A stretch of 64,000 nt of DNA from an uncultured Enterobacterales bacterium (GCA_964481655.1 CAYZVO010000015.1:789-64788); one strand, 5' to 3'; positions 23,817 to 46,732 are shown, counted from the stretch's first letter. Notes: generated by a model not told the origin, from the letters alone. Program-made: numbers and translations.

Positions 23817-23960
23817 GTGATGCTCCCGGCCCGATCGGATGGGCTGCCCCTGTTCGAACTGGGGGTATCGGTCATTCTGTGCGCCGGCCAGCGTCCCGTC
23901 GTTGGCATGACATGTGATGACAGTGGTCCTCGAAGGGTGATTTCCATGCGCTGGGCCGCT

Positions 23961-23989
23961 GTCGAACCATGTGCGCGCTCTGGTATGAT
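23961..23989 (+). promoter_or_regulatory. candidate sigma-70 extended -10 promoter for the nine-gene lipoprotein operon
   Basis: TGgTATGAT at 23981-23989 (extended -10). A weak -35, GTCGAA, sits 17 nt upstream. The -10 ends 26 nt before ATG 24016. The region is locally AT-richer. Confidence 0.4.
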
Positions 23990-24015
23990 GCCCGCCCCTG
24001 CAGCAGGGAGCCCCC

Positions 24016-25434
24016 ATGCGCACCACCGTCCTCTGCCTGTCCGCCCTCGCCTTGCACACCGGCTGTCCTGGCCCGGAGTGTGGCCCGGGCACCCACCTCG
24101 AGGACGGTCTGTGCGTGCCCGACGAGCCCGAGGGCGACACCGACACGGACGCCGACGGGGACACCGACACCGACACGGACACCGACACCGACGCCGACAC
24201 GGACCTCGAGCCGGATCCGCCCATCGGCTGCCCGCCCCTGTCCCCCTCGTTCGGGAACGAGGTGATCATCCCCTCCGGCAACGCCTCGGCCCTGCGCACG
24301 GCGGTGGACACCGCGTCGGAGGGGGACGTCATCCTGCTCGAGGACGGCACCTACAACCTGAACGGCGACTACCTGTGGATGGACGTGGACGATGTGGTCC
24401 TGCGCTCCCAGAGCGGCGACCGCGACGCGGTGATCCTCGACGGTGGGTACATCACCACCGAGATCATCAACATGGTGGGCTCGAACATCACCGTGGCCGA
24501 CATCACCATCCAGCGCTGCTCGAGCTGCGCCCTGCACGTGCAGCCGGCCAACGGCTACGACACCACCGGCCACCTGATCTACAACGTCGCGATCATCGAT
24601 CCCGGCGAGCACGCCATCAAGGTCAACCAGAACGGGGGCTACTACACGGACAACGGCACCATCGCCTGTTCCTGGATGGAGCTGACCGACGAGGGCCGGC
24701 CCCACGTCTCCACCTACAGCACCGGCTGCTACACCGGCGGCATCGACACCCACAACACCCGCGGCTGGAAGCACTACGACAACCACATCGAGGGCTTCTG
24801 GTGTGAGTCGGGCCTGTCCGAGCACGGCATCCACCTGTGGAACGGCAACGCCGACACCCTCATCGCCCGCAACACCATCGTGAACGTGGCCCGCGGCATC
24901 GGGCTGGGCATGGCCACCGCCGACGACAACGAGCGGGGCTTCGAGTCCGAGTACAGCTGCGTGAACGGCGCCCACCCCGACGACTTCGCCGCCACCGTGC
25001 GCAACAACACCGTCTTCGCCGACGATCCGCGCCTGTTCGCCTCGGGCTCCGGCTTCGACGCGGGCATCGAGATCGAGAACGCCTGTGATGCCAAGCTGCT
25101 GCACAACACCGTCTACAGCAGCTCGGCGCCGTACTCATCCATGTCCTGGCGCTACCCCACCTCCAGCGGGCATGTGGCCAACAACCTGCTCTCCCACAAC
25201 CTGCGGGAGCGCATCGAGTCCGGCGAGGACCCGGCCGATGTGCTCGCCGAGGGCAACATCCAGGACGCCCCGGCGGATCTGTTCGAGGACGCCCTCGCGG
25301 GTGAGCTGCACCTCGTGACCGGGGCCAGCGCCGCGGACGCGGGGGTCGCGCTCACCGGCGACAGCGCCGTGACCCACGACATGGACGGCGAGCTCCGGGA
25401 CAGCAGCCCGGACGTGGGCGCGGACGAGCTGTGA
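24016..25434 (+). CDS. right-handed parallel beta-helix (pectin-lyase fold) lipoprotein with CGPGTHLEDG/DTD leader
   Basis: MRTTVLCLSALALHTGC lipobox, ECGPGTHLEDGLCV, a DTD repeat linker, and repeated NxxI/V beta-helix rungs (NITVADITIQ, NTIVNVARGIGL, NNTVF, HNTVY). C-terminal D..G..R......DVGADE motif as in 'choice-of-anchor Q'-type proteins. Confidence 0.75.
   Translation: MRTTVLCLSALALHTGCPGPECGPGTHLEDGLCVPDEPEGDTDTDADGDTDTDTDTDTDADTDLEPDPPIGCPPLSPSFGNEVIIPSGNASALRTAVDTASEGDVILLEDGTYNLNGDYLWMDVDDVVLRSQSGDRDAVILDGGYITTEIINMVGSNITVADITIQRCSSCALHVQPANGYDTTGHLIYNVAIIDPGEHAIKVNQNGGYYTDNGTIACSWMELTDEGRPHVSTYSTGCYTGGIDTHNTRGWKHYDNHIEGFWCESGLSEHGIHLWNGNADTLIARNTIVNVARGIGLGMATADDNERGFESEYSCVNGAHPDDFAATVRNNTVFADDPRLFASGSGFDAGIEIENACDAKLLHNTVYSSSAPYSSMSWRYPTSSGHVANNLLSHNLRERIESGEDPADVLAEGNIQDAPADLFEDALAGELHLVTGASAADAGVALTGDSAVTHDMDGELRDSSPDVGADEL
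24136..24204 (+). repeat. imperfect hexanucleotide (GACACS/GACGCC) repeat encoding a D-T-D-A linker
   Basis: gacaccgacacggacgccgac... read directly from the sequence. In frame within CDS 24016..25434. Confidence 0.9.
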
Positions 25435-27173
25435 TCCGCGGCGCGCTTTCGGCGCTGCTCCTGACCGCCTGCACCGAGACCCAGGTGCAGGGGCTGGAGC
25501 CCGCCCTGACCGTGGCGCCCGAGTCGGTGCTGTTCGAGGGGGTGCCGCTGGATGGCGAAGGCGAAGCCGTGGTCACCATCGGCAACGCCGGCGGGGGCAC
25601 GCTGCAGCTGGAGGGCTTCTCGACCGCCAGCCCGTTCTCCGTCGAGGGCGAGCCCCAGGACCTCGAGCCCGGGGCGAGCCTCGCGGTGGGGTTGCGCTTC
25701 TACGCCCTGGCCGATGGCACCCACGAGGGCGCGCTGCGCATCGCGTCCAACGACCCCGAACAGCCCACGGTCGACGTGCCCCTGTCCGCCGTGGTGGTGG
25801 CGCCGGACATCCTGGTGGAGCCCGAGCGGCTGGTGTTCGCCGGCGACGGCGCCCGGCAGCAGCAGCGGATCTACATCAGCAACGAGGGCGAGGGCCCCCT
25901 GGTGCTCGTCACGGCGGCGGTGAGCGACGACGGTGGCGGCGCGTTCGAGCTGGCCCAGGAACCCCAGGACCTGCGGGTGGAGGCCGGAGAGATCACCCAG
26001 CTGGACGTGATCTGCGAGGTGGAGGGCACAGCCATCGGCGCGCTGTCCATCCAGTCCAACGATCCCGACAGCCCCACGGTCGAGGTCTGGCTGGGGGCCG
26101 AGGATCCGGACAACGACACGCCGTCGGCGCCGGTGGTCGCGATCACTCCGGGTGAGCCCGAGGAGGGCGACGGGCTGCTGTGCGAGATCCTGGAGCCCGC
26201 GGTGGACCCCGAGGGCGAACAGGTCGGCTACACCTTCGCGTGGCGTGAGGACGACGCGGCCTGGGCCGGCGCCACGGGGTCCTCGGCCCACGCGGGGGAC
26301 AGCATCGACGGGGCCGAGACCCAGGACCTCGAGATCTGGACCTGCGAGGTGACCCCGAGCGATCCCTGGGGAGCCGGTGACGCGGGTGAGGCCTCAGTGC
26401 AGATCGGCTGCGTCTACGGCGCGGACGAGCGCTGCCCGGGGCTGTCCTGTCTGGACATCCTCGAGCAGGGTGCTGCCGACGGCGACGGGGTCTACTGGAT
26501 CGATCCGCTGGGGGAGGGGGCCTACCAGGTCCACTGCGACATGACGCTGGATGGGGGGGGGTGGACGCTCACCATGGTCTCGAGCGACGACGATCAGACC
26601 ACCTGGACCTGGAACAACCGCACCCTGATGTCCAGCGACGCGCGGCCCGTCGGCTCCCTCGACGCCATCGATCGGGACTTCGAGTCCGCCGCGCACGTCG
26701 ATGTGGTCTTCGCCGACCTGATGTTCTTGCACGCGCCGTCGGGCGTCTGGGCCGCCTACGATCTGGTGGGCGACGGCACGCTGGGGCTCGCGGCCACCAT
26801 CGCCGCCGTCGGAGATCCCGTCTGCTACGACCCGGGCGACGGCTTCGCCATGACCGCGGGCACGCTCACGCTGCAGGGCGATCTGTGCTCCACCGAGCTG
26901 TACTTCAGCCCCCAGGACTGGGACGGCTGGGGCTGCAGCGCGGACAACGACGGGCACACCCACGGCCCGGCGTGGAGCGCGGCGAACAACAGCGGCTGCC
27001 CCTTCGACGATCCGGGCTCCATCTCGGGCCTGGGCCCCAACCAGCACGATGGTCAGCAGGACCTCGAGTGCCGCATGCCCGACGAGAACTGCCTCGGCTT
27101 CGCCGAGAAGGCCGGCCTGAACACCGGAGCCCAGGGCGCGGCGGAGAACTACATGCAGGTGTATGTGCGATGA
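25431..27173 (+). CDS. lipoprotein with N-terminal Ig-like (ASH/choice-of-anchor-D-like) domains and C-terminal fibrinogen-like YCDxxxxGGGW domain
   Basis: GTG 25431 overlaps the upstream TGA. MIRGALSALLLTAC lipobox. Two F..V..G......I.N.G...L modules. C-terminal CPGLSCLDILEQG..DGVYWIDP..AYQVHCDMTLDGGGWTLT is the hallmark of the fibrinogen C-terminal globular domain. Confidence 0.7.
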   Translation: MIRGALSALLLTACTETQVQGLEPALTVAPESVLFEGVPLDGEGEAVVTIGNAGGGTLQLEGFSTASPFSVEGEPQDLEPGASLAVGLRFYALADGTHEGALRIASNDPEQPTVDVPLSAVVVAPDILVEPERLVFAGDGARQQQRIYISNEGEGPLVLVTAAVSDDGGGAFELAQEPQDLRVEAGEITQLDVICEVEGTAIGALSIQSNDPDSPTVEVWLGAEDPDNDTPSAPVVAITPGEPEEGDGLLCEILEPAVDPEGEQVGYTFAWREDDAAWAGATGSSAHAGDSIDGAETQDLEIWTCEVTPSDPWGAGDAGEASVQIGCVYGADERCPGLSCLDILEQGAADGDGVYWIDPLGEGAYQVHCDMTLDGGGWTLTMVSSDDDQTTWTWNNRTLMSSDARPVGSLDAIDRDFESAAHVDVVFADLMFLHAPSGVWAAYDLVGDGTLGLAATIAAVGDPVCYDPGDGFAMTAGTLTLQGDLCSTELYFSPQDWDGWGCSADNDGHTHGPAWSAANNSGCPFDDPGSISGLGPNQHDGQQDLECRMPDENCLGFAEKAGLNTGAQGAAENYMQVYVR

Positions 27174-29293
27174 ATCCCCGACTCTCCCTGCTGCTCCTGA
27201 TCCTCACTGCCTGCAGCTCCAGCCAGGACCAGGACATGGACGGCTTCGGTGTGCTGCAGGGGGACTGTGACGACCACGACGACACCATCCACCCGGCCGC
27301 GCCCGAGGTCTGCAACGGCCTCGACGACGACTGCGACGGGACCGTGGACGACGACGCTGCCGGTGGTGACTGGTTCTACCCGGACGCCGACGGCGACGGC
27401 TACGGGCTGACCGCCTTCCCGGCCCAGCACTGCGCCGAGTCGGTGCCCGGCTGGACCCGGGAGCGGGGCGACTGCGACGAGGGCGACGCCAGCATCCATC
27501 CCGGCGCCGATGAGCTCTGCAACGGCGTGGACGACGACTGCGACGAGCGGGTCGATGAGAACGCCGCGGACGTCACCACCTGGTACGCCGACGACGACGG
27601 GGATGGGTTTGGAGACAGCGATCGCAGCTGGCCCGCCTGCATGCAGCCCGAGGGCTGGGTGGAGCACGGTGGGGACTGCGACGACGGCGATCCAGCGGTG
27701 CACCCCGACGCCGATGAGAGCTGCCTGACCGAGTCGGACGACGACTGCGACGGTGAGGCCAACGAGGTGGACGCGGTGGCGTGCTCCGACTGGTACGAGG
27801 ACGCGGACGGCGACGGCTACGGCGGCGACGGGCTCTGCCTCTGCGAGGCCGCGGAGCCCTTCACCCTCGAGGCCTCGGAGGACTGCGACGACGGGGACGA
27901 GGGGGTGCACCCCGGAGCCGAGGAGCTGGACGACCTGGTGGACCAGGACTGCGACGGCCAGGCGGCCGTCAGCGCCGACATCCTCGGGATCTCCATCAGC
28001 GGCGAGGACTACGCCGACTACGCCGGCATCGCCCTGGCGCTGGTGGGCGACACCGACGGGGACGGCTGGGATGACCTGCTCATCGGGGCCCACGGGGACG
28101 ACAGCATCGGCAACGCCACGGGTGCCGCCTACCTGGTGGCCGGTCCCATCACCGCCTCGATGGACCTGGCGGATGCCCAGGCGAAGCTGCTGGGAGAAGC
28201 CGGCAACGACTACACCGGGCTCAGCATGGCCCCGGCGGGCGATCTCGACGGCGACGGGCTGGCCGACCTGCTGGTGGGCGCCTATCGCAACGATCGTGGG
28301 GGCACGGACGCCGGCGCGGTGTTCCTCGTGCACGGCCCGGTGGAGGGTGAGATCGAGCTGGGCGTCGCCGCCCTGGCGTTCACCGGCGAGGGCTCCTACC
28401 ACTACGCCGGCTACGCCCTGGACGGCGGCGGCGACCTGACCGGGGATGGGTGGCCCGATGTGGCCATCGGAGCCTACCTGGCCGACGGCGCCGGCAGCAG
28501 CGCTGGTGCGGTCTACGTGCTCGAAGGGCCGGTGGACGAGGGGGGCTCGCTGCCCGAGATCGGCCTGATCCTGGAGCCCTACAGCAGCGGCAGCTCCTTC
28601 GGCTACGACCTCTGCTCGCTGGACCTGGACGGTGACGGTGTGGACGAGCTGGCCGTCGGGGCCCTCACCACCGATCTCGAGGAGAGCAACACCGGCTCTG
28701 TGATGGTGTACCGGGGGCCGGTGCAGCACGCGGGCGACTACCCCGACAGCGAGATCTACGGCACCCTGTCGGGGGACTACCTGGGGCGCACGGTGGCCGA
28801 CGGAGGCGATCTCGATGGCGACGGCGTCCCCGACCTCGTCATCGGGAGCCAGGACGCCGACTACGTGCGCATCAACGCCGGTGTCCTCTACGTCATCGAT
28901 GAGCTCCCCGTGGGCCAGGAGGACGTGCACGAGACCTGGTCCGCGCGCATCGTAGGCGCCGGGGAGACGGACAACATCACCCAGGTGGAGTCCGCAGGGG
29001 ACATCGACGGAGACGGCTGGGGCGACCTGGTGCTGGGAGCCCGCTACCACGACGCCGCCGGGGAGTCCGCGGGCCAGGCCTACCTGCTGCTCGGCCCCGT
29101 CGAGGGCTCCATCGACCTGCAGGACGCGCCCCTGATCATCGACGGCGCGGAGGCGGGCGACGCCGTGGGCTGCGCCGTGGCGGGGGGCGTCGATCTCGAC
29201 GGCGGAGGCGAGCTGGACTTCCTGTTCAGCGCCATCTACGCGGGCGAGGACACCGAGGGCCTGGTCTACCTGGCCCAGGGGGAGGACCGATGA
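27170..29293 (+). CDS. lipoprotein with MopE-type putative metal-binding repeats plus FG-GAP (integrin-alpha-like) repeats, copy A
   Basis: ATG 27170 overlaps the upstream TGA. MNPRLSLLLLILTAC. Four to five GDCDDxD..IHPGA.E.CNG.DDDCDG units, then repeated GD.DGDG..D..IGA FG-GAP blades. Confidence 0.8.
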   Translation: MNPRLSLLLLILTACSSSQDQDMDGFGVLQGDCDDHDDTIHPAAPEVCNGLDDDCDGTVDDDAAGGDWFYPDADGDGYGLTAFPAQHCAESVPGWTRERGDCDEGDASIHPGADELCNGVDDDCDERVDENAADVTTWYADDDGDGFGDSDRSWPACMQPEGWVEHGGDCDDGDPAVHPDADESCLTESDDDCDGEANEVDAVACSDWYEDADGDGYGGDGLCLCEAAEPFTLEASEDCDDGDEGVHPGAEELDDLVDQDCDGQAAVSADILGISISGEDYADYAGIALALVGDTDGDGWDDLLIGAHGDDSIGNATGAAYLVAGPITASMDLADAQAKLLGEAGNDYTGLSMAPAGDLDGDGLADLLVGAYRNDRGGTDAGAVFLVHGPVEGEIELGVAALAFTGEGSYHYAGYALDGGGDLTGDGWPDVAIGAYLADGAGSSAGAVYVLEGPVDEGGSLPEIGLILEPYSSGSSFGYDLCSLDLDGDGVDELAVGALTTDLEESNTGSVMVYRGPVQHAGDYPDSEIYGTLSGDYLGRTVADGGDLDGDGVPDLVIGSQDADYVRINAGVLYVIDELPVGQEDVHETWSARIVGAGETDNITQVESAGDIDGDGWGDLVLGARYHDAAGESAGQAYLLLGPVEGSIDLQDAPLIIDGAEAGDAVGCAVAGGVDLDGGGELDFLFSAIYAGEDTEGLVYLAQGEDR

Positions 29294-31221
29294 GCGCGCG
29301 CACCCCCTTCATGTTCGTTCTGCTGTGCTCGGCCTGCACCGACTACGGCGTGAACATCATCGAGCTGCCCGATCCCGATCCGCCGGACACCGAGGTTCCC
29401 GGAGACAGCGAGCGCTTCGACAGCGGGCCCCCACTGGACACCGACGCGCCGCCCGCCTGCTCGGATGGTCCCTGGCCCGAGGGCGAGGCTGCGGTGGACG
29501 AGACCTGTCGCTGGGAGCCCGAGACCGGCACCTTCCGGCCGGTGATCGAGTGGTGGATGTCCAGTTTCGACGAGCACCCCCAGTTCGCCAGCACCACGGT
29601 CACGCCGGCGGTCGGCCAGCTCACCGACGACGACGGCGACGGCGACATCGACAGCGACGACACCCCCGACATCGCCGCGGTCTTCTACGAGGAGCTCGAC
29701 AACCGCTACGAGACCGTGCTGCGCCTGATCTCCGGCGACGGATCGGGTGTGCACTGGAGCGTGAAGGGCGCGGAGCTGGACGGCACCACCTGGCACCCGT
29801 ACCAGAACGCCAACTGTGCCTTGGCGGACATCGGGGCCGACGGTCGGGCCGAGATCGCCACCACTGTCAACGACGGCAGCACCTGCCGGGCGGGCTTGTT
29901 CGACAACCAGGGCGCCCTGCTGTGGGTCAACACCGACGTGGCGCTCAAGTGCGGCAACAACGCGCCCGCCTTCGCCGATCTCGAAGGCGACGGCGTGGTG
30001 GAGCTGGTGTACGGACCGTTCATCTTCGACGCGGCCAGCGGTCAGCTGCTGGGCGAAGGCAGCCACGGCACCGGCTGCAACCAGGGCTACTCCTGGGGTG
30101 GCTACCACAGCGTGCCCGCAGACCTGGACGGCGACGGCATCCAGGAGATCGTGGCCGGTCGGTCGGTGTATCGGCCCGATGGCGAACACCACTGCTTCGC
30201 CGACTTCGAGGACGGCTACGCGGCGGTGGCCGATCTCGACGGCGATGGGCTCGGGGAGTTCGTCATCACCGGCGCCGGTGATGTGCGCCTCTTCGAGCAC
30301 GACTGCTGGTACATCGACGGCTGGGAGCTGGACGACGAGGGGAGCGGTGGGCCGGCGACCATCGCCGACTACGACGGCGATGGCGAGCCCGAGATCGGGG
30401 TCGCCTCCTACGGCCACTACACCGTCTACGAGACGGACGGCAGCCTGCTGTGGCGCAACGACGTGCAGGACCACAGCTCGTCCTCCACGGGCTCGTCTGT
30501 CTACGACTTCGACGGCGATGGTTACGCCGAGGTCGTCTATGCCGACGAGGAGGACCTCTGGATCTTCCAGGGCATCGACGGCGCCGTGCGTATGCGGGAC
30601 GGAACCCACTGGTCCTGGACGGGCAACGAGCTGCCCGTCGTCGTGGACGTGGACGGCGACGGTGAGGTGGAGATCGTGGTCTCGGACCTCGAGGGCATCT
30701 TCGTGGTCGGCGACCAGGACCACAGCTGGGTGGCCGGCCGCCAGGTTTGGAATCAGCCCAGCTACAACATCACCAACGTCAACGACGACCTGACCATCCC
30801 CGCCATCCCCGATCCCAACTGGCCCGAGCACAACAACTTCCGCTCCGGCGACATCACCCCGGCCTTCGGCGCGGCCGCCCCCGACGCGGCGCCCCTGCTG
30901 GTGGACGTCTGCACCCTCGAGTGCGACGCCGGGCTCCTGCAGCTCACCATCCAGGTGGGCGACAGCGGGCTCGAGGCCCTCGAACCAGGCGTCGCCATCG
31001 CCGTGTACGCCGGGGCCGAGGCCAGCGGCGATCCCCTCGCCACGGGGAACACCAGCGAGGCCGTGCCTTCTGGCGGCGCCAGCGAGGCCATCGTCGTCGA
31101 GCTGGACGTGTCCGCCACCGCGCTCGAGGCCCTCACCGTGGTGGTGGACCCCGACGACGCGCTGTCCGAGTGCAGCGAGGACAACAACACCATCGTCATC
31201 CAGGAGGGGCTGTGTCCCTGA
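29290..31221 (+). CDS. FG-GAP/VCBS beta-propeller lipoprotein with C-terminal CARDB-like domain, copy A
   Basis: ATG 29290 overlaps the upstream TGA. MSARTPFMFVLLCSAC. About 8 DxDGDG.E calcium-loop blades. C-terminus ends ...SECSEDNNTIVIQ, typical of CARDB. Confidence 0.8.
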   Translation: MSARTPFMFVLLCSACTDYGVNIIELPDPDPPDTEVPGDSERFDSGPPLDTDAPPACSDGPWPEGEAAVDETCRWEPETGTFRPVIEWWMSSFDEHPQFASTTVTPAVGQLTDDDGDGDIDSDDTPDIAAVFYEELDNRYETVLRLISGDGSGVHWSVKGAELDGTTWHPYQNANCALADIGADGRAEIATTVNDGSTCRAGLFDNQGALLWVNTDVALKCGNNAPAFADLEGDGVVELVYGPFIFDAASGQLLGEGSHGTGCNQGYSWGGYHSVPADLDGDGIQEIVAGRSVYRPDGEHHCFADFEDGYAAVADLDGDGLGEFVITGAGDVRLFEHDCWYIDGWELDDEGSGGPATIADYDGDGEPEIGVASYGHYTVYETDGSLLWRNDVQDHSSSSTGSSVYDFDGDGYAEVVYADEEDLWIFQGIDGAVRMRDGTHWSWTGNELPVVVDVDGDGEVEIVVSDLEGIFVVGDQDHSWVAGRQVWNQPSYNITNVNDDLTIPAIPDPNWPEHNNFRSGDITPAFGAAAPDAAPLLVDVCTLECDAGLLQLTIQVGDSGLEALEPGVAIAVYAGAEASGDPLATGNTSEAVPSGGASEAIVVELDVSATALEALTVVVDPDDALSECSEDNNTIVIQEGLCP

Positions 31222-32654
31222 TCGCCCTGACCACCGCCGCCCTGCTGCTCCCCGCCTGCGACCGCTCCGAGTGCGGCCCTGGCACCCACCTCGAGGACGG
31301 CGTGTGCGTGCTGGACGAGGACACCGACGTCGAGGGAGACACCGACACCGACGCGGACGCCGACACGGACAGCGACACGGACGCCGACGCCGACGCCGAC
31401 ACGGACGCCGACGCCGACACGGACGCCGACACCGACATCCACAGCCCGCGCAGCTTCCCCGAGGTCATGGACCGCGTCGCCGTGTTCGCTGATCAGTTCT
31501 GGCCCTACACCGACGAGCAGGCCCAGGTGATGGCGGAGAGGTTCCTGGGCACCCAGAAGATCTTCCTGGATCAGTCCGCCGCCATCCGTACCCACGACGA
31601 GGACTTCCTGGTCCTGCACTACCACCTCTGCATCTGGCAGCAGCAGCCCGACCACCAGCTCATCATCGACGGCGAGAACTGGGGCAACGACTTCGAGTTC
31701 GTGACGAAGCACGAGGACTGGTTCTGGCACAACGAGGCCGGCGAGCGGGTGCGCTCGAGCAGCGACGGCAAGTACCTGATGAACATCTCGAACACCGAGT
31801 TCATCGAGTACTGGAAGTCCTCCATCCTCGAGCAGATGCGCCTGGGGGACTACGACGGCGTGTTCCTGGACTCCTGCTCCACCGGGTTGCTCAACAGCGA
31901 AGCCTTGGGAGGCACCTACGACGGCGAGGAGGTGCCGGGTGAGGCCCGCTTCGCGGGCACCGGAGCCCTCAGCAGCTTCGACGAGCTCGGCGGGCTGACC
32001 TGGCCCCAGGCCTACGAGGCCTTCATGTCGGAGATCTGCGCCCACTACGAGTCCTACGGCTACGCCTGCTTGCCCAATGTCGGCAACCAGACCACCACCT
32101 GGGACCCCACCGACTACGACGACACATCCACGGGCGGCATGGTGGAGAACGCCTTCAACGTCAGCACGGAGGGTGATTGGGTGCAGGTGGCGAACCGCAT
32201 CCTGGGCCTCACCGACGGGATCATCATCCTGCAGTCCTACCCGAGCGACTCCGACATCGATGCACGCCAGTACTACCTGGGCAGCTACCTGTTGGTGAGG
32301 GAAGCGCGGACCTACATCAGCTACTTCTCGGCGCACACCTTCTCCTGGTTCCCGGAGTGGGATGTCCCCCTGGGCGCGCCCACCGAGTCCGCTGCGGGCG
32401 AGGACGTCTCCACCCTGGCCTGGAGCGGGGTCTACCGGCGCCGCTTCGACCACGGCTTCGTGCTGGTCAATCCCCACGACGACGCGGCGGAGGTGACCCT
32501 CGAGGCCACCGCCTGGCGGGCCGTCCCGACCGGAGGCGGCCCGCTCAACCGCGCGGGCACCAACGACGCCAAGCTCGCCTACGAGGCCGTGAGCGGCGTG
32601 ACGATGGACCCCTGGAGCGCCGCGATCTTCCTGAACAGCGCGCCCGCGGAGTAG
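31212..32654 (+). CDS. TIM-barrel glycoside-hydrolase-like lipoprotein (GHL15/GH114-like) with CGPGTHLEDG/DTD leader
   Basis: GTG 31212 after CAGGAGGGG, with a 10-nt overlap of the upstream gene. VSLIALTTAALLLPAC, ECGPGTHLEDGVCV and a long DTD/DAD linker. The body (WFWHNEAGERV..YLMNISNTEFIEYWK..YDGVFLDS) resembles hypothetical glycosyl hydrolase-like families. The function call is tentative. Confidence 0.6.
   Translation: MSLIALTTAALLLPACDRSECGPGTHLEDGVCVLDEDTDVEGDTDTDADADTDSDTDADADADTDADADTDADTDIHSPRSFPEVMDRVAVFADQFWPYTDEQAQVMAERFLGTQKIFLDQSAAIRTHDEDFLVLHYHLCIWQQQPDHQLIIDGENWGNDFEFVTKHEDWFWHNEAGERVRSSSDGKYLMNISNTEFIEYWKSSILEQMRLGDYDGVFLDSCSTGLLNSEALGGTYDGEEVPGEARFAGTGALSSFDELGGLTWPQAYEAFMSEICAHYESYGYACLPNVGNQTTTWDPTDYDDTSTGGMVENAFNVSTEGDWVQVANRILGLTDGIIILQSYPSDSDIDARQYYLGSYLLVREARTYISYFSAHTFSWFPEWDVPLGAPTESAAGEDVSTLAWSGVYRRRFDHGFVLVNPHDDAAEVTLEATAWRAVPTGGGPLNRAGTNDAKLAYEAVSGVTMDPWSAAIFLNSAPAE
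31338..31436 (+). repeat. imperfect hexanucleotide repeat encoding a D-T-D-A linker
   Basis: gacaccgacaccgacgcggacgccgacacggacagcgac... read directly. In frame in CDS 31212..32654. Confidence 0.9.
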
Positions 32655-32662
32655 GCCTGAGC

Positions 32663-34795
32663 ATGCGCACCGCCTGCCCCCTCCTGCTGCTGCTCCTGGC
32701 CGGCTGCAGCTCCGGCCAGGACCAGGACATGGACGGCTTCGGGGTGCTGCAGGGCGACTGCGACGACCACGACCCCACCATCCATCCCGCGGCGCCGGAG
32801 GTCTGCAACGGCATCGACGACGACTGCGATGGGACGGTGGATGACGACGCCGAGGGCGGCGAGTGGTTCTACGTGGACGCCGACGGCGACGGCTGGGGCT
32901 TGTCCGCTTACGCCGAGCAGCACTGCGCCAGTGAGGTCGCCGGCTGGGCCCAGCAACGCGGGGACTGCAACGACTACGACCCGGGGGTCCACCCGGGGGC
33001 CGACGAGCTGTGCAACGGCACCGACGACGACTGCGACGGCCGCACGGACGAGGGCGCGGTGGATGCGGCCACCTGGTACGCGGACGACGACGGGGATGGG
33101 TGGGGGGATGAGGGCATCAACTGGCCTGCCTGCGAGCAGCCCAGCGGCTGGATCGCCCAGGGGGGCGACTGCGACGACGGCGATCCCGACGTGCATCCCG
33201 AGGCCGGGGAGGTCTGCTGGACCAGCTTCGACGACGACTGCGACGGAGAGCCCAACGAGCAGGACGCGGCCGGGTGCGAGATCTTCCACGAGGATGCGGA
33301 CGGAGACGGGTACGGAGGCGCGGGGGCTTGCTTCTGCGAGGCCGTGGATCCCTGGCTGCTCGACGACGCCACGGACTGCGATGACCACGACGCCTCCATC
33401 CACCCGGGCGCCGAAGATCTGGACGATCTCATCGACCAGGACTGCGACGGCGGGGTGAACCTGGCGGTCTCGGCCATGACGCTGCGGGTGACTGGGGAGT
33501 ACGAGAACGACAACGCCGGCATCAGCGCTGCCATGGTGGGCGACGTGGACGGGGACGGCTGGGGCGATCTACTGGTGGGCGCCCACGGCGACGACAGCAA
33601 CGCCAGCGCCTCGGGTGCGGCCTACCTGGTGCGGGGTCCGATCACGGCCGATGTGGCCTTGGTCGACGCCGAGGCCAAGCTCGTCGGCGCCAGCTACGCC
33701 GACTACGCGGGCTGGCAGGTCGCGCCGGCGGGGGACCAGGACGGGGACGGCTACGCCGACCTGCTCGTGGCAGCCTACGGCTGTGACGAACAGGCGAGCT
33801 CCGCCGGTGTCGCCTACCTGGTCTATGGCCCCGTCAGCGGCGAGCACCAGCTCGAGGACGCCGACGCGGAGCTCTGGGGGCTCGGTGGCGGACTCATGGG
33901 CTGGAACATCGACGGTGGCGAGGATCTCACCGGCGACGGTGTCCCCGATCTGATCCTGGGCGCCTACGCCAGCGACGAGGGTGGCACCGACAGCGGGGTC
34001 GCCTGGCTGGTGCCCGGGCCGGTGACCGGCCAGCACGTGGTGGACGGGATCGCCTTCGGCATCTACGGCGAGCGTGACGACGAGCTCGGCTACAGCGTGG
34101 CCATGGGTGGGGACCAGGACGGCGATGGCCAGCGGGAGCTGCTGCTGGGCGCGCCGGACGACGACCTGGGGGACACCAGCACCGGCTCGCTGCTGATCTT
34201 CAACACCCCGCTGGACACGGACTACCTGACCGCCGACGCCACGCTGTACGGGGAGACCAACTACGATCGCATGGGCCGCTGGGTCGCCGACGGCGGCGAC
34301 ATCGACGGGGATGGCTACGACGATCTGCTCGCCGGCTCCCAGCACGGGGACCTGCTGCGACCCAACGCCGGCACCCTGTGGGTCATCCCGGGCCCGGTCT
34401 GGGGCCAGCTGTGGACCTCGGAGGTGTTGGCGGCGCGCATCGCCGGACCCCACGAGTACGCGGAGGTCTACAAGCTCGAGGGTGCAGGCGACATCGACAA
34501 CGACGGCTTCGACGACGTGGTCATCGGGGGGGAGTACGTGGACGGAGACACAGGCGAGAACCAGGGAGCCGCCTGGCTGCTCTACGGCCCTGTCTCTGGC
34601 AACATCGACCTGGCCGACGATGCCGACGTGAGCTTCCTCTCCGAGGACGCCTCGGACTACCTGGGCGTGTCGGTGCGCGGCGGCGGGGACATCACCGGCG
34701 ACGGGCTGGACGACCTGCTCATCGGCGCTCGGTATGCGGGTGAGGGTGACGTCGGGACCCTGTTCATCCTGCCGGGCCAGGGGGGCGGCTCATGA
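32663..34795 (+). CDS. lipoprotein with MopE-type repeats plus FG-GAP repeats, copy B
   Basis: ATG 32663. MRTACPLLLLLLAGC. Colinear with 27170..29293 over its full length (SSxQDQDMDGFGVLQGDCDDHD..IHPAAPEVCNG.DDDCDGTVDDD identical or near-identical). Confidence 0.8.
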   Translation: MRTACPLLLLLLAGCSSGQDQDMDGFGVLQGDCDDHDPTIHPAAPEVCNGIDDDCDGTVDDDAEGGEWFYVDADGDGWGLSAYAEQHCASEVAGWAQQRGDCNDYDPGVHPGADELCNGTDDDCDGRTDEGAVDAATWYADDDGDGWGDEGINWPACEQPSGWIAQGGDCDDGDPDVHPEAGEVCWTSFDDDCDGEPNEQDAAGCEIFHEDADGDGYGGAGACFCEAVDPWLLDDATDCDDHDASIHPGAEDLDDLIDQDCDGGVNLAVSAMTLRVTGEYENDNAGISAAMVGDVDGDGWGDLLVGAHGDDSNASASGAAYLVRGPITADVALVDAEAKLVGASYADYAGWQVAPAGDQDGDGYADLLVAAYGCDEQASSAGVAYLVYGPVSGEHQLEDADAELWGLGGGLMGWNIDGGEDLTGDGVPDLILGAYASDEGGTDSGVAWLVPGPVTGQHVVDGIAFGIYGERDDELGYSVAMGGDQDGDGQRELLLGAPDDDLGDTSTGSLLIFNTPLDTDYLTADATLYGETNYDRMGRWVADGGDIDGDGYDDLLAGSQHGDLLRPNAGTLWVIPGPVWGQLWTSEVLAARIAGPHEYAEVYKLEGAGDIDNDGFDDVVIGGEYVDGDTGENQGAAWLLYGPVSGNIDLADDADVSFLSEDASDYLGVSVRGGGDITGDGLDDLLIGARYAGEGDVGTLFILPGQGGGS

Positions 34796-36744
34796 CCTCG
34801 TCCATCTCCGTCCTCGCGCTGCTGCTGGTCCCCGCATGCACGGACTACGGCGTGAACATCATCGAGCTGCCCGAGCCCGATCCCCCAGACAGCGAGCCGC
34901 CGTTCGTGGACACCCAATGGGAGGACACCCAGCCTCCCATCGACACCCAGCCGCCCCCGGTGTGCGACGAGGGCCCGTGGCCCGACGGCGACGCCGCCGT
35001 GGACGAGAGCTGCATCTGGGAGCCGATCACCGGCACCTTCCGGCCTGTGGTGGAGTGGTGGATCAGCGACTTCGGCGATGGCTACGACGACGGGATCGCC
35101 AACCTGGCCACCCCCACGGTGGGCCAGGTCACCGACGACGACGGCGACGGTGATGTGGACAGCGACGACGTCCCCGACATCGCGGTCGTGGCCTACCAGC
35201 GCGATGAGTCGCTCTTCGTGGGCACGATGAGGCTGGTCTCGGGAGATGGCTCGGCGGTGCACTGGTCGGTGCGCGAGGCCGAGCTGAATGGGGTGACCTG
35301 GTACCCCTTCGGGCTGTCCGGCGTGTCCATGGCCGACGCCGACGCCGACGGTGACGTGGAGCTGGCCGCGGTGGTCTGCGATGGCGAGGGCTCGAGCACC
35401 GGCGCCAACTACTACACCTGCTACCCGGCGATGTTCGACCATGGCGGGACGCTGCTGTGGGTCAACGACGACTACGAGGTGGACTGCGGTGGCCACGCGC
35501 CCGCCTGGGCGGACATGGAGGGAGACGGCGTGGTGGAGCTGATCCTCGGTCGCCTGATCCTGGACCCGCTGACCGGCGAGGTGCTGGCCGAGGGAGAGTG
35601 GGGCTACGGCTACGACCCGGAGTACCAGAACTCCGGCTTCCACAGCTTCGCCATCGACATCGACGGTGAGGGGACCCAGGAGCTCGTCACCGGCAACTCC
35701 ATCTATACCCCCGAGGGGGAGCTGGTCTGCTTCACCGGCTACGACGACGGCTACCCGGCCGTGGCGGATCTGGACGGTGACGGCCGCGGTGAGCTGGTCA
35801 CCACGGGCAACGGCTGGGTGCGGCTGTTCGAGGACGACTGCTGGATCATCGATCAGTGGCAGCTGTTCGACAGCGGCGCGGGTGGCCCGGCCACCATCGC
35901 CGACTACGACGGCGACGGGGAGCCCGAGATCGGGGTGGCGTCCTACGGCATCTACTACGTGTTCGAGGTGGACGGGACGCTGCTGTGGTCCCGCTACACC
36001 CAGGACCACTCGAGCTCTTCGACGGGGTCCTCGGTCTACGACTTCGACGGCGACGGCTACGCCGAGGTGGTCTACGCCGACGAGGAGGACCTCTGGATCT
36101 ACGCTGGCACCGACGGCACCGTGCGGATGCAGGACACCACCCACGAGTCGGGCACCATCAACGAGTACCCGGTCATCGTGGATGTGGACGGCGACGGCGA
36201 GGTCGAGATCGTGGTGGCCGACAACAACGGCCTGTTCGTCGTCGGTGACTACGACCACAGCTGGGTGGCCGGCCGCCAGGTCTGGAACCAGGCCAGCTAC
36301 AACATCGTCAACGTCAACGACGACCTGACCATCCCGGCTGTACCCGAGCCCAACTGGCCCGGACACAACAACTTCCGCTCCGGGGACGTCACCCGCTCCT
36401 TCGCTTCGGCGGCGCCCGATCCCGTGCCCCTGCTGGTGGATCTGTGCAGCCTCGAGTGCGACGCCGGCGTCCTGCAGCTCGGGGTGCAGGTGGGCAACGG
36501 CGGCCTGGGCGAGGTCGACGGACCCCTCGTGGTCGGTGTCTATGGCGACGACGTCCTGCTGGACTCCACCACCACCATCGCGTCCATCCCCTCGGGGGAG
36601 GCGAACGACACCCTGCTGTTCCGGCTCGACGTGACGGGCCTCGCCCTCGAGACGCTGACGGTGGTCGTGGACGACGGCGGCTCCTTGCCCGAGTGCCACG
36701 AAGACAACAACACCCTCACCATCACGGAGGGCCTGTGTCCGTGA
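34792..36744 (+). CDS. FG-GAP/VCBS beta-propeller lipoprotein with CARDB-like C-terminus, copy B
   Basis: ATG 34792 overlaps the upstream TGA. MTSSISVLALLLVPAC. CTDYGVNIIELP, GTFRPV.EWW and RQVWNQ.SYNI.NVNDDLTIPA are shared with copy A. Confidence 0.8.
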   Translation: MTSSISVLALLLVPACTDYGVNIIELPEPDPPDSEPPFVDTQWEDTQPPIDTQPPPVCDEGPWPDGDAAVDESCIWEPITGTFRPVVEWWISDFGDGYDDGIANLATPTVGQVTDDDGDGDVDSDDVPDIAVVAYQRDESLFVGTMRLVSGDGSAVHWSVREAELNGVTWYPFGLSGVSMADADADGDVELAAVVCDGEGSSTGANYYTCYPAMFDHGGTLLWVNDDYEVDCGGHAPAWADMEGDGVVELILGRLILDPLTGEVLAEGEWGYGYDPEYQNSGFHSFAIDIDGEGTQELVTGNSIYTPEGELVCFTGYDDGYPAVADLDGDGRGELVTTGNGWVRLFEDDCWIIDQWQLFDSGAGGPATIADYDGDGEPEIGVASYGIYYVFEVDGTLLWSRYTQDHSSSSTGSSVYDFDGDGYAEVVYADEEDLWIYAGTDGTVRMQDTTHESGTINEYPVIVDVDGDGEVEIVVADNNGLFVVGDYDHSWVAGRQVWNQASYNIVNVNDDLTIPAVPEPNWPGHNNFRSGDVTRSFASAAPDPVPLLVDLCSLECDAGVLQLGVQVGNGGLGEVDGPLVVGVYGDDVLLDSTTTIASIPSGEANDTLLFRLDVTGLALETLTVVVDDGGSLPECHEDNNTLTITEGLCP

Positions 36745-38333
36745 CCTGTCTTTGGTCGGGCGGACGTGACGTCCGCCCCTACGTTCTGTTGGCGCTGCTC
36801 CACCCCGCCTGCGACCGCTCCGAGTGCGGCCCCGGCACCCACCTCGAGGATGGCGTCTGCGTGCTCGACGAGGACACCGACGTCGAGGGAGACACCGACA
36901 CCGACACGGACGCCGACACGGACAGCGACACGGACGCCGACGCCGACACGGACGCCGACACGGACGCCGATGCCGACATCGTCGTGGACCCCTGCGAGGA
37001 GCGGCCGGCCATCTGGGTCGATCCCACCGGCATCGACCGCGACGGCTGCGGTGCCGAGGGCGACCCCTGCGCCAGCCTGCGCTACGGCCTGGGCCTGGCC
37101 AGCAGCGGCGACGCGGTCTGCGCGCGGGCCGGGACCTACACCGAGAACTGGGTCTATGTGCCTAGCGGGGTCTGGTTGGTCGGCGTGGACGGGCCCGAGG
37201 CCACGGCCATCTACAGCCGGACCTACTCGGCGCTGCGTGTCGAGGGCGTGCAGGATGTGGGCGTCCAGGGCTTCGAGGTCTACGGCGACTGGGGCGACGG
37301 CGCAGCCGGCGATGGCCTGGTGCGCGTGCTGGACTCCAGCGGGGTGGTGCTGCGGGATCTGATCGTGCACGACGCCCCCTACGATCAGGACTGCATCAAG
37401 GTCTCCGGCGAGGTCAGCGACCTGCTCATCGACGGGGTCATCGCCTGGAATCCCGGGCCTCGCACCACCGCGGGCACCTACCAGGAGAACATCGACATCT
37501 ACGGCAGCGGGGCAGGGGAGGGCGAGCCACCGCCGGTCTCGGACGTCACGGTGCGCGGCTGCTGGCTGTTCCACCGCGGCGAGGTCGGGGACTGGCTCAT
37601 CTACAGCAAGATCAACGCCGAGAACATCCTCTACGAGAACAACGTCTTCGGGCCCTCGGCGGGCATGGGCTACGGCAACGCCGCGGTGGGCGTCGGCACC
37701 GGCGAGGCCGGGGAGCCCGACAGCGGCGCCGCTGTGGTCACCCACGCCATCGTGCGCAACAACCTGTTCCTCGGCCTTCAGGGTGACGCCGCCCTGGCGG
37801 TGATGAACGCCGAGGACACCTGGATCCACGGCAACACCTTCTACGGCAACAGCGGCGACGGGCTGCGCTCGGTGCTGATGCTCCGGGGCAACACCCACGC
37901 GGTGGGAGCCACCCGGGTGCTGGGCAACCTGTTCGTGTCCAACCAACCCGCCAAGTACGGCGCGGGCAGCTTCGTCTGGGTGCGGGATGCGCTGCCCGAT
38001 GAGTGGGTGCTGGACTACAACCTGTACCTGGACAACGTCGCCGCCAGCGACACGCCGACCACCGGCGAGGCCCACGGCCTGTACGACCAGGACCCCCTGT
38101 TGGTGGCACCGACGATCCCCAGCGGGGACAGCCCGACGCCGGCCCGGCTCGCCGAGATCCAGGCAGCCTTCGAGCTGGGCGAGGGTTCGCCGGCGCTGAG
38201 CGTGGTCCCGGACGTCGTGGCGCAGCCCGGCTACCCCGCCTGGCACCCCGGGCGGACGGACGTCCGGGAGGACATGCAGGGGGATCCACGAGCCGAGGGT
38301 GGGCCCTGGGACATCGGCGCCGACGAACGCTGA
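36735..38333 (+). CDS. right-handed parallel beta-helix lipoprotein with CGPGTHLEDG/DTD leader
   Basis: GTG 36735 is positionally homologous to GTG 31212; GTG 36741 is an alternative start. ...LLALLHPAC lipobox, ECGPGTHLEDGVCV and a DTD linker. Beta-helix rungs (VRNNLFLG, HGNTFYGN, LGNLFVSN). Ends ...DMQGDPR....WDIGADER. Confidence 0.75.
   Translation: MSVTCLWSGGRDVRPYVLLALLHPACDRSECGPGTHLEDGVCVLDEDTDVEGDTDTDTDADTDSDTDADADTDADTDADADIVVDPCEERPAIWVDPTGIDRDGCGAEGDPCASLRYGLGLASSGDAVCARAGTYTENWVYVPSGVWLVGVDGPEATAIYSRTYSALRVEGVQDVGVQGFEVYGDWGDGAAGDGLVRVLDSSGVVLRDLIVHDAPYDQDCIKVSGEVSDLLIDGVIAWNPGPRTTAGTYQENIDIYGSGAGEGEPPPVSDVTVRGCWLFHRGEVGDWLIYSKINAENILYENNVFGPSAGMGYGNAAVGVGTGEAGEPDSGAAVVTHAIVRNNLFLGLQGDAALAVMNAEDTWIHGNTFYGNSGDGLRSVLMLRGNTHAVGATRVLGNLFVSNQPAKYGAGSFVWVRDALPDEWVLDYNLYLDNVAASDTPTTGEAHGLYDQDPLLVAPTIPSGDSPTPARLAEIQAAFELGEGSPALSVVPDVVAQPGYPAWHPGRTDVREDMQGDPRAEGGPWDIGADER
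36891..36977 (+). repeat. imperfect hexanucleotide repeat encoding a D-T-D-A linker
   Basis: gacaccgacaccgacacggacgccgacacggacagcgac... read directly. In frame in CDS 36735..38333. Confidence 0.9.
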
Positions 38334-38397
38334 GCCCAACAAGCCCCGCGGACGGCCTCGGTTCGTGCTAGAACCTCCTGTGATGACTGGAGAGAGC

Positions 38398-39087
38398 ATG
38401 GTCCCCCGCCACCACCTGCCCATCGCGCTGCTGACGGCCCTCGCCGCGGGCTGCAGCTGCCCCAACGTGCCCCTGGATCCACTGCCCACCGGCGGTGACT
38501 CCGACGAACCCCCGCTGGACAGCGAGCCCGAGACCAACCCCTGGGACTCGGACGACACGCCCCCCGACGACAGCGAGCCGGACACCACCGAGCCCCAGGA
38601 GGGCTCGAACCAGCTCATGAACGGCGGCTTCGAGCAGGGCGAAGGGTCCTTCTCGGGCGTGGGCTACGGCTGGGAGACCGCCGACGGCGCCTCCCACGGC
38701 GAGGACTACCTCGACTACCACACGCCCTACGCGGGCACCGCCGCCCAGTGCATCACCGGCGGCTGGAGCGCGGCGGCCATCCAGCAGATCACCCGCGAGG
38801 GCACGGTCTCCCCGGGCACCACCTACCGGGTGCGCGCCATGGTCCGCGCTCAGCACATGAGCAGCGGCCACGGCTGGTACCTGCTCGGCCTGCGCTGGTA
38901 CTCGGGCGACAGCTACGTCTCCGAAGTCCAGATGACTCAGCCCCACGCCATCACCTACGACTGGACCCAGGTCGTCGTCGACGCTGTGGCCCCCGATGGT
39001 GTGGATCGGGCCGCCGCCTACCTGGCGTCCTACACCGATGGCATCGCCTGCTACGACGACGTGGTGCTGACCGACCTCAGCAAGTAG
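38398..39087 (+). CDS. lipoprotein with CBM4_9-like carbohydrate-binding module
   Basis: GGAGAG RBS then ATG 38398. LLTALAAGCSC lipobox. Acidic/Pro linker, then NQLMNGGFEQGEG...GW...A..C... ending YDDVVLTDL, the usual CBM_4_9 jelly-roll pattern. Confidence 0.7.
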   Translation: MVPRHHLPIALLTALAAGCSCPNVPLDPLPTGGDSDEPPLDSEPETNPWDSDDTPPDDSEPDTTEPQEGSNQLMNGGFEQGEGSFSGVGYGWETADGASHGEDYLDYHTPYAGTAAQCITGGWSAAAIQQITREGTVSPGTTYRVRAMVRAQHMSSGHGWYLLGLRWYSGDSYVSEVQMTQPHAITYDWTQVVVDAVAPDGVDRAAAYLASYTDGIACYDDVVLTDLSK

Positions 39088-39120
39088 CGCCCGCGAATCG
39101 TCGAATTTCGCCATTTGTCC

Positions 39121-39149
39121 TTGACGTTCGGTCTGGGCGCGCCTATCTG
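39121..39149 (+). promoter_or_regulatory. candidate sigma-70-type promoter
   Basis: TTGACG, a 17-nt spacer, then TATCTG, in the AT-richer 118-nt gap upstream of ATG 39206 (RBS AGGAGG). Confidence 0.35.
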
Positions 39150-39205
39150 GTTCGCGACTGAACGATCATTCATTTTCCGAGCGGGCCCTGCCCCAGGAGG
39201 AGATC

Positions 39206-39721: not shown

Positions 39722-39756
39722 CTGACCCGGCGCATGGGCGCCCGAGGGTGACTGTG

Positions 39757-39783
39757 GTATTACGGATCGACTATCCGTAATAC
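39757..39783. promoter_or_regulatory. perfect 11-bp inverted repeat (operator or hairpin) abutting the TonB-dependent receptor start
   Basis: GTATTACGGAT-CGACT-ATCCGTAATAC. AT-rich in a GC-rich genome. It lies 36 nt after the upstream stop and ends 4 nt before GTG 39788. Confidence 0.5.
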
Positions 39784-39787
39784 TCCC

Positions 39788-42444: not shown

Positions 42445-42448
42445 CCCC

Positions 42449-46681: not shown

Positions 46682-46732
46682 CCTCCAGCTCCTCCATGGC
46701 CAGGATAGCCGCGGAGGACGCCGGTCGTGGGC

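Follow-up and report, generated by a model that had tools for sequence, protein, structure and literature searches.

In the polysaccharide utilization loci (PULs) of Bacteroidota, surface lipoproteins that bind glycans are combined with carbohydrate-active enzymes (CAZymes) and carbohydrate-binding modules (CBMs), and the Vibrio rbm cluster also has a beta-helix polysaccharide-degrading protein, RbmB. The propellers of the Vibrio proteins Bap1 and RbmC bind Vibrio exopolysaccharide, the product of their own cell, directly (PMC10102183). Here we describe a locus that resembles each of these systems in part and that also shares features with integrin alpha chains, cellulosomes, and animal intelectins. 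It consists of nine genes, g1 to g9, at positions 24016 to 39087 of a 64,000-nucleotide stretch of DNA (the window) deposited as that of an uncultured Enterobacterales bacterium (GCA_964481655.1 CAYZVO010000015.1:789-64788). A first-pass annotation of the window had proposed that these genes form an all-lipoprotein operon encoding one surface machine that binds or remodels a glycan or matrix. The reading that we favor, with a probability of roughly 0.55, is that they form a co-expressed modular array of lipid-anchored, very acidic, and probably Ca2+-loaded proteins that bind and locally cut extracellular polysaccharide; that figure covers the whole explanation, of which a single polycistronic, translationally coupled operon is one part.

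The window has a GC content of about 70%, which crowds raw lists of open reading frames (ORFs). Third-position GC content singled out the nine plus-strand frames of the array, with values of 0.81 to 0.96. Each of these is in frame and uninterrupted, and an independent pipeline run on the 72-kb metagenome scaffold to which the window belongs (SUTE22-1_SAMN10231913, scaffold_967) made identical calls for all nine genes. Neighboring genes overlap by 4 nucleotides (GTGA or ATGA) at 25431, 27170, 29290, and 34792 and by 10 nucleotides at 31212 and 36735, each of the latter junctions having a GGAGG 5 to 6 nucleotides before a GTG start; g5 and g6 are separated by an 8-nucleotide gap (32655 to 32662) and g8 and g9 by a 64-nucleotide gap (38334 to 38397). 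The ORF check, the independent gene calls, and the reading of each junction thus bore out the first-pass annotation as to the number, strand, and coordinates of the genes and the position and type of each overlap. The packing is operon-like and tightly coupled. A scan of positions 23000 to 42500 for the terminator consensus found no terminator-like site, a result that is uninformative in a non-enterobacterial genome of 70% GC. Compared with their orthologues, the nine genes had dN/dS ratios of 0.16 to 0.47, with the minimum in the propeller genes described below, and all nine are under purifying selection.

Each of the nine products begins with a short hydrophobic leader that ends in Gly or Ala followed by Cys, with the Cys at residue 14 to 26; the leader and lipobox strings proved to be exactly those quoted in the first-pass annotation. 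When the strict lipobox pattern of PROSITE PS51257, [LVI][ASTVI][GAS]C, was applied, it was passed by g2, g3, g6, and g9. The others deviate at position -3 (His in g1, Cys in g4), at position -2 (Pro in g5 and g7), or at both (His and Pro in g8). A lenient rule was passed by all nine array genes compared to about 9 of the 28 other ORFs of the window, even with every candidate start of the latter allowed, so the run of lipoboxes is not trivial even though the genome is rich in lipoproteins. In addition, the lipobox Cys is invariant among 28 homologues of the family to which g4 and g7 belong and is retained in the orthologues of g1, g2, g5, g8, and the g3/g6 family. From these leaders we infer that the products are lipidated and located at the surface. 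All nine are extremely acidic, with an isoelectric point (pI) of about 4.1, 15 to 23% Asp plus Glu, and 2 to 5% Lys plus Arg, compared to 6 to 13% Lys plus Arg in most neighboring genes. This acidity fits Ca2+-binding extracellular proteins.

Propeller proteins are encoded by four of the genes, arranged as two pairs of adjacent genes that we call C1-D1 (g3 and g4) and C2-D2 (g6 and g7). Pfam searches with g3 returned four stretches of Cu-binding_MopE (115 bits) and six of FG-GAP (90 bits), and those with g6 returned MopE at 120 bits and seven FG-GAP stretches. Against the sequences of the PDB, the C propeller matched the Ca2+-binding blades of integrin alpha-IIb, alpha-5, and alpha-V with an E value of 1e-12. 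C resembles an integrin alpha chain in its propeller (six to seven FG-GAP stretches, compared to seven blades, with Ca2+ loops) and in always being paired with a second protein. It differs in that its partner is another propeller rather than a VWA or beta-I protein, in that no VWA domain occurs in the locus, in that C is a predicted lipoprotein rather than a transmembrane protein, and in that MopE repeats replace the thigh and calf domains. For D, Pfam matches in g7 included FG-GAP_3 and CARDB (24.5 bits, cut-off 22.7), and the matches to FG-GAP and FG-GAP_3 exceeded the Pfam cut-offs. The predicted model of g4 (mean predicted local distance difference test score [pLDDT], 85; predicted template modeling [TM] score, 0.76) had as its top fold match in the PDB the structure of Vibrio cholerae Bap1 (6MLT; E value, 1e-24; TM scores, 0.58 and 0.61), followed far behind by YesX, of polysaccharide lyase family PL11, and by integrin alpha-V. 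D also matched 6MLT by sequence, with an E value of 1.8e-29 at about 20% identity, and eight DxDGDG-type loops were counted by eye in an alignment of the D family. A PL11 rhamnogalacturonan lyase identity for D was considered and not adopted, YesX being a second-tier match (E value, 6e-9; TM score, about 0.33) well behind Bap1; an RGL11_C match among D homologues is recorded as faint for the one homologue for which a match strength is shown.

The eight-bladed FG-GAP/VCBS propeller of D therefore has Bap1 as by far its closest structure, and both systems join such a propeller with lectin-type domains. Several differences separate them. Bap1 and RbmC are freely secreted, whereas the array proteins are predicted to be lipid anchored; in the array, the gene for this propeller forms an obligate pair with that for another propeller, which is integrin-like and bears MopE repeats; no beta-prism or jacalin-type domain was matched in the array by Pfam, D having a CARDB/Ig-like C terminus instead; and the scanned parts of the window, which include part of the region upstream of the array, contain no exopolysaccharide-synthesis genes. 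With no beta-prism, a predicted lipid anchor, and such low identity, D is not an orthologue of Bap1 or RbmC, but it has the propeller fold in common with them and plausibly a like mode of action. The two C proteins are 54% identical in amino acid sequence and the two D proteins 60%, and identities between paralogous pairs are only 45 to 60% overall, which suggests that different pairs have different ligands. Members of the D family, which is very large (more than 2,100 matches at E values of 1e-10 or below), are named "VCBS repeat-containing" or "MopE-related" by their sources and come from metagenome-assembled genomes (MAGs) of Myxococcota; by this naming of homologues, the host clade is probably Myxococcota.

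The propellers could alternatively be the main point of the locus, as an adhesin or recognition repertoire. The pairs would then act in the manner of integrins, as receptors for surfaces, kin, or prey cells, with enzymes and lectins that are mere accessories or unrelated passengers. We consider this unlikely. Propeller genes do account for 8.2 kb of the total of 15 kb and occur as four pairs in one related contig (L092, below), their paralogues have diverged to the identities given above, C resembles integrin alpha, and Bap1 is itself an adhesin (PMC10102183); yet there is no VWA or beta-I partner domain, and translational coupling links the pairs to the genes for the enzymes and lectins, which relatives also keep in the locus. 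This alternative overlaps heavily with the explanation that we favor and differs from it mainly in emphasis. A gliding-motility adhesin of the CglB type was rejected because no VWA domain is present.

Three further genes, g1, g5, and g8, have in common an N-terminal module and nothing beyond it: the lipobox Cys, a mini-domain with two Cys residues, (E)CGPGTHLEDGxCV, and an (Asp-Thr/Ala/Ser)n stalk. Related bacteria carry this module in front of GHL15, GH114, Pel9A-like, DUF5123, GH18, SASA-esterase, and FG-GAP heads, and judged from these architectures it acts like an anchor and stalk that is reused with different carbohydrate-active heads. The stalks are encoded by imperfect tandem repeats of 12 to 17 copies, and their length differs from one orthologue to another; it may change by slippage or recombination at the repeats, which may also help in the exchange of heads. 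In g1 and g8 the Pfam Beta_helix matches (and, for g1, the NosD match) fell below the cut-off, and a beta-helix is supported instead by profile comparison. The N-terminal part of g1 matched TIGR03805, and a weak Pel9A-like match is recorded for it in the source collection. Alignment of the g1 and g8 family profiles with hhalign gave a probability of 99.5% and an E value of 8e-23, from which the two beta-helices are homologous. We found 85 homologues of g8, many of them with Beta_helix, Pel9A-like, or DUF1565 matches and some with Dockerin_1, and the family profile matched PL6 alginate lyases (AlyGC, 5e-7), a GH120 xylosidase, phage tailspikes, a PL9 rhamnogalacturonan lyase, and GH28. Both g1 and g8 are pectin-lyase-fold proteins related to enzymes of the PL6, PL9, and GH28 types; they are assigned to no CAZy family, and their catalysis is predicted. 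The start of g8 is ambiguous: a GTG at 36735, with its 10-nucleotide overlap with g7, gives 532 amino acids, and another pipeline gives 514. The shorter version, which starts at LALLHPAC, would lack the signal peptide, and we prefer the 532-amino-acid version because it mirrors the junction between g4 and g5.

The head of g5 matched Pfam GHL15 (PF14885) at 3e-40 and 139.3 bits (cut-off 27) over profile positions 7 to 270 of 271, and by this match g5 is a true member of the GHL15 family. Its weak matches to PDB sequences were to GH114, an endo-1,3-fucanase, and a GHL15 structure, and nothing specific on GHL15 function was found in the literature searched. The stalked genes recall the cellulosome in that diverse CAZyme heads (GHL15, GH114, GH18, Pel9A-like, and SASA) are carried on one noncatalytic N-terminal module, with Dockerin_1 present only in distant relatives of g8. 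Unlike in the cellulosome, Pfam detected neither dockerin nor cohesin in the nine products, and the common module is a predicted lipid anchor with a two-Cys mini-domain and an acidic stalk, which would tether each head directly to the membrane. A SitA-like system of polymorphic lipoprotein toxins, which have a conserved N terminus and a variable C terminus, was rejected, since what varies here is the type of carbohydrate-active enzyme and small immunity genes are lacking downstream.

The remaining two genes, g2 and g9, are of the lectin type. NCBIfam searches with g2 returned choice_anch_D at 67 bits (cut-off 45) and GGGWT_bact at 63 bits (cut-off 30), and the NCBI model NF040941, "fibrinogen-like YCDxxxxGGGW," already covers its motif. 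The Ig-like part of the AlphaFold model of g2 (pLDDT, 89) matched folds of the HYDIN/ASH type; in a fold search with the full-length model the matches came mainly from the three Ig-like domains, and nothing was returned for the C-terminal lectin-like domain (approximately residues 340 to 580, some 240 residues). A profile of that domain was closest to lamprey serum lectin (1.6e-13), human intelectin-1 (1.5e-12), and XEEL over profile positions 7 to 109, compared to positions 7 to 60 only for fibrinogen-type domains. The likeness to animal intelectins (X-type lectins) thus runs past the fibrinogen-like subdomain with its GGGWTL motif. The alignment ends before the region of the Ca2+-dependent ligand site, which in intelectins binds exocyclic 1,2-diols. 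The g2 domain differs from intelectins in being bacterial, in its predicted lipid anchor, and in following three Ig-like domains. On this profile evidence the C terminus of g2 is a bacterial domain of the fibrinogen-related/intelectin-like kind. According to one paper, intelectins occur in chordates (PMC12800186), and nothing specific on bacterial intelectins was found in the literature searched. Myxococcota-type MAGs contain domains of the g2 type in many further architectures, fused to EGF-like repeats, MopE repeats, FGE-sulfatase (PF03781), PF13948, Kelch, or lectin C domains. In g9, Pfam CBM_4_9 was matched at 1.7e-7 and 32.1 bits (cut-off 25.9), and orthologues of g9 directly follow g8 in three related contigs (L003, L092, and a 96-kb JGI contig). 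The profile searches with Pfam and NCBIfam, together with the profile comparison for the beta-helices of g1 and g8, reproduced every module assignment of the first-pass annotation.

Table 1. Features of the nine-gene array and its flanks (positions are those of the window)
Feature	Position	Strand	Description
Divergent gene	22356-23816	-	Gene call of the source scaffold, divergent from g1; sub-threshold PilZ match
Intergenic region	23817-24015	.	Divergent, 199 bp, upstream of g1; presumed promoter region
g1	24016-25434	+	Predicted lipoprotein: CGPGTHLEDGxCV mini-domain, (Asp-Thr)n stalk, right-handed beta-helix (PL9/DUF1565-like); conserved head gene
g1 stalk repeat	24135-24204	+	GACACC-type hexanucleotide tandem repeat encoding the Asp-Thr stalk (Tandem Repeats Finder)
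g2	25431-27173	+	Predicted lipoprotein: three Ig-like (ASH/choice-of-anchor D) domains and C-terminal intelectin/fibrinogen-related lectin-like domain
g3 (C1)	27170-29293	+	Predicted lipoprotein: four MopE Cys-rich acidic repeats and integrin-alpha-like FG-GAP propeller
Duplication copy 1	27186-31419	+	C, D, and 5' end of the following stalk gene (blastn self-comparison)
g4 (D1)	29290-31221	+	Predicted lipoprotein: Pro/Asp linker, 8-blade Bap1-like propeller, C-terminal Ig-like (CARDB-type) domain
g5	31212-32654	+	Predicted lipoprotein: mini-domain and (Asp-Thr/Ala)n stalk as in g1 and g8; GHL15 TIM-barrel head
g5 stalk repeat	31320-31437	+	Equivalent stalk repeat (Tandem Repeats Finder)
g6 (C2)	32663-34795	+	Paralogue of g3: four MopE repeats and FG-GAP propeller
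Duplication copy 2	32679-36978	+	Second copy (blastn self-comparison)
g7 (D2)	34792-36744	+	Paralogue of g4: 8-blade propeller and CARDB domain
g8	36735-38333	+	Predicted lipoprotein: common mini-domain and stalk; beta-helix head (DUF1565/Pel9A-like); conserved tail gene
g8 stalk repeat	36873-36978	+	Equivalent stalk repeat (Tandem Repeats Finder)
g9	38398-39087	+	Small predicted lipoprotein: Pro/Asp linker and CBM_4_9 carbohydrate-binding module
g10	39206-39721	+	171-amino-acid coiled-coil protein without signal peptide; array membership uncertain
TonB-dependent receptor gene	39788-41794	+	Pfam Plug and TonB_dep_Rec_b-barrel; probably outside the array

Loci of relatives were found through orthologues of g2 and g4 with 62 to 87% identity in several aquatic and other metagenomes, and the same parts were co-localized in at least six related contigs, with g1 as a constant head and g8-g9-g10 as a constant tail. 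The order in the window is g1, g2, C1-D1, GHL15, C2-D2, g8, g9, g10. Contigs L004 and L005 read C3-D3, g2, C1-D1, GHL15, C2-D2, g8; L003 reads C3-D3, g2, GHL15, C2-D2, g8, g9, g10; L007 reads g1, C3-D3, C1-D1, g2, and C2 onward; and L010 and L092 read g1, C3-D3, C4-D4, C1-D1, C2-D2, g2, a reversed D-like gene, g8, g9. The JGI contig holds a 482-amino-acid gene, a C-D pair, an 880-amino-acid gene, two further C-D pairs, a reversed FG-GAP gene, a g8-like gene, a CBM gene, a 172-amino-acid gene, and a beta-helix gene. Orthologues of g1 open the arrays of L007 and L010. C is always directly followed by D, with 4-nucleotide overlaps, counted from the gene tables, at 12 of the 15 C-to-D junctions of the window and its relatives and gaps of 1 to 2 nucleotides at the rest, and the pair types hold their relative order (C3-D3, C4-D4, C1-D1, C2-D2) across contigs. 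Among close relatives (73 to 87% identity), the number of C-D pairs ranges from two to four, g2 and the GHL15 gene vary in whether they are present and where they lie, and some contigs have inserted genes. The locus is therefore modular, its head and tail staying constant, and is not a complex of fixed composition; in this respect the "one machine" of nine fixed parts that had been proposed did not stand. A D-like FG-GAP gene lies in reverse orientation before the g8-like tail in L092 (17723 to 19558, minus strand) and in the JGI contig (622 amino acids), and a single transcript would break at that gene.

The metagenome search with g4 gave one further useful locus, L092, and a D profile run against the GTDB species representatives gave 80 loci, all of 46% identity or less (in Nannocystis, Enhygromyxa, Sandaracinaceae, Polyangiaceae, Myxococcus, and others), with C as a neighbor in 1 of the 80 and other array parts in none. 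D accordingly needs no C in general. The array is absent from the cultured Myxococcota of the GTDB set and is therefore confined to a narrow uncultured clade. The expectation that homologues would be co-localized rather than scattered held in the related contigs, with varying order; in the GTDB loci D is a singleton.

A self-comparison of the window uncovered a 4.2-kb segmental duplication, in which C1, D1, and the 5' end of g5 correspond to C2, D2, and the 5' end of g8 with 75 to 77% nucleotide identity, rising to 94% over the segment that encodes the leader and mini-domain. Neither this duplication nor the stalk common to g1, g5, and g8 had been described in the first-pass annotation. Such a clear duplication raises the question of whether the locus has any joint function, since a hotspot for tandem duplication of Myxococcota lipoprotein paralogues could owe its tight packing to the mode of duplication. 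The variation of order and copy number among relatives, the abundance of lipoproteins in the window, and the size of the D family, usually a singleton elsewhere, agree with such a hotspot. It is nevertheless very doubtful, given that head and tail genes are conserved, that C always precedes D and pair types keep their order across contigs, that every gene is under purifying selection, that the nonpropeller genes are all carbohydrate related and three of them have a common stalk, and that extreme acidity is common to all nine products.

The flanks of the array were also inspected. In the 199-bp region upstream of g1 there was no sigma-70 consensus site, a consensus that is uninformative for this taxon, and an Rfam scan of the whole window found no RNA family and so no riboswitch upstream of g1. 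The divergent gene beyond this region has a PilZ match just below the cut-off (E value, 3.6e-4; 21.2 bits, cut-off 22.5). If that match is real, an effector of cyclic di-GMP would adjoin a putative matrix or adhesion operon. Downstream, g10 follows g9 after a gap of 118 nucleotides and has only weak matches of the apolipoprotein or lipid-droplet kind; an orthologue with 73% identity follows g9 in L003 (13382 to 13873), and the 172-amino-acid gene of the JGI contig lies in the same place. Between g10 and the TonB-dependent receptor gene is a perfect AT-rich inverted repeat with an 11-bp stem (39757 to 39783), GTATTACGGAT-cgact-ATCCGTAATAC, which ends 4 nucleotides before the GTG of the receptor gene and stands out in a genome of 70% GC; the 69-nucleotide spacer that contains it folds at -30.4 kcal/mol. 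The hairpin might end transcription of g10 as a terminator, serve as an operator, or mask translation. Farther downstream on the minus strand are another very acidic MopE-containing protein (44651 to 46732; pI 4.1), a Beta_propel protein of PF09826 (46736 to 49591; E value, 4e-106), and a CE2 carbohydrate esterase/GDSL protein with a lipobox-like leader of its own (52045 to 54156; MTRATIILLPLLIGC).

The receptor gene, with its Plug and barrel domains on the same strand 700 nucleotides after g9, is the element that would be expected if the array served nutrient harvest in the manner of a PUL, with lipoproteins capturing and cutting environmental polysaccharide and oligosaccharides entering through the receptor. 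The array does combine surface lipoprotein binders, CAZymes, and a CBM (the CBM_4_9 protein g9 and the lectin-like g2 are encoded together with GHL15 and two putative beta-helix enzymes), and a lipoprotein CE2 esterase is found elsewhere in the window. Among the nine products and the neighbors that were scanned, however, none was SusD-like, and the position of the receptor is taken by a Metallophos gene in L003 and by a beta-helix gene in the JGI contig. Because SusD is absent and the adjacent receptor is not conserved, the array is not a PUL of the Bacteroidota type. In addition, the nonsecreted g10 and the strong hairpin separate the receptor from the array; binders dominate (4 of the 9 genes here and 8 of the 12 in L092), unlike in enzyme-rich PULs; no sugar-catabolic genes or regulator are adjacent; and the phylum is a different one. 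We therefore regard PUL-like harvest as improbable.

The array is neither an integrin nor a cellulosome, and its kind would be that of co-encoded surface glycan binders and depolymerases. Every domain type in it is known; what is distinctive is the obligate propeller-pair cassettes, the common enzyme stalk, and the cassette-level variation between close relatives. We propose that the proteins are exported by Sec, lipidated, and placed on the cell envelope, the outer membrane surface being the likeliest site; acidic linkers, MopE stalks, or Asp-Thr stalks would hold them off the membrane. By analogy with Bap1 and integrin alpha, the C-D pairs would act as Ca2+-dependent glycan or matrix binders, with diverged paralogues giving different specificities. 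Further lectin sites would be added by g2 and g9, and the two PL9/PL6-like beta-helices (g1 and g8) and the GHL15 TIM barrel (g5) would depolymerize or trim the bound glycan. The array may have evolved through gain and loss of pairs and of accessory heads at one conserved site, the junction between D and the next gene, where the putative ribosome-binding site (the SD-like [Shine-Dalgarno-like] GGAGG) and GTG start of the downstream gene lie within the conserved C-terminal codons of D (...E-G-L-C-P-stop).

As to the target, we lean slightly toward a foreign glycan, of a prey envelope or particulate material, rather than the matrix of the cell itself. The intelectin-like lectin, CBM4_9, the range of catabolic heads found on the stalk, and the neighboring TonB receptor point to a foreign glycan. 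The cell's own exopolysaccharide is suggested by the Bap1 likeness of D and by the kinship of GHL15 with GH114/PelA-type enzymes, which we take to be its relatives. The general proposal of the first-pass annotation, that the locus binds or remodels a glycan or matrix outside the cytoplasm, gains support from the Bap1-like fold of D, the lectin domain of g2, the beta-helices of g1 and g8, GHL15, and CBM_4_9. It had also known of no described system of this composition, and the open-access literature that we searched held no description of the array, which is absence of evidence only.

Several observations weigh against the reading that we favor. Five of the nine lipoboxes depart from the strict PS51257 pattern. 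The match to Bap1, with TM scores of only about 0.6 and 20% identity, is silent on the ligand, and propeller and beta-helix folds occur in nonglycan contexts too. Gene order varies among relatives, so a fixed complex is not required, and D is a singleton in the Myxococcota loci of the GTDB set. The GHL15 family was predicted in 2011 and was uncharacterized in 2017 (PMC5765458), without a demonstrated activity. Finally, the scanned window parts lack exopolysaccharide-synthesis genes, and the operon has neither a SusD-like nor an export component.

An elaboration of the favored reading, which we think quite unlikely as a whole, is that the C-D pairs form integrin-like heterodimers on which the CGPGTHLEDGxCV mini-domains of the stalked enzymes dock, giving a lipoprotein-based, cellulosome-like machine of an uncultured Myxococcota clade. 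The repertoire of pairs would then set the prey or matrix glycans that are recognized, and the intelectin-like lectin would add microbial glycans. The docking of the mini-domain to C or D is pure speculation.

With known domains, an inferred function, and an uncultured organism, we regard the array as a solid lead rather than a surprise. It leads into a very large family and gives a testable context, that of obligate propeller pairs coupled to lectins and predicted polysaccharide-cutting enzymes, to the unannotated "VCBS," "FG-GAP," and "MopE-related" lipoproteins that abound in Myxococcota genomes. If the reading is correct, it would extend the "double-sided tape" idea of Bap1, an exopolysaccharide-gripping propeller, to lipid-anchored proteins and to another phylum, and the stalk would be defined as a module that can be reused to display carbohydrate-active enzymes. 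It would also provide two proteins whose genomic setting hints at their substrates, a GHL15 enzyme that is uncharacterized and an intelectin-like lectin from a bacterium.

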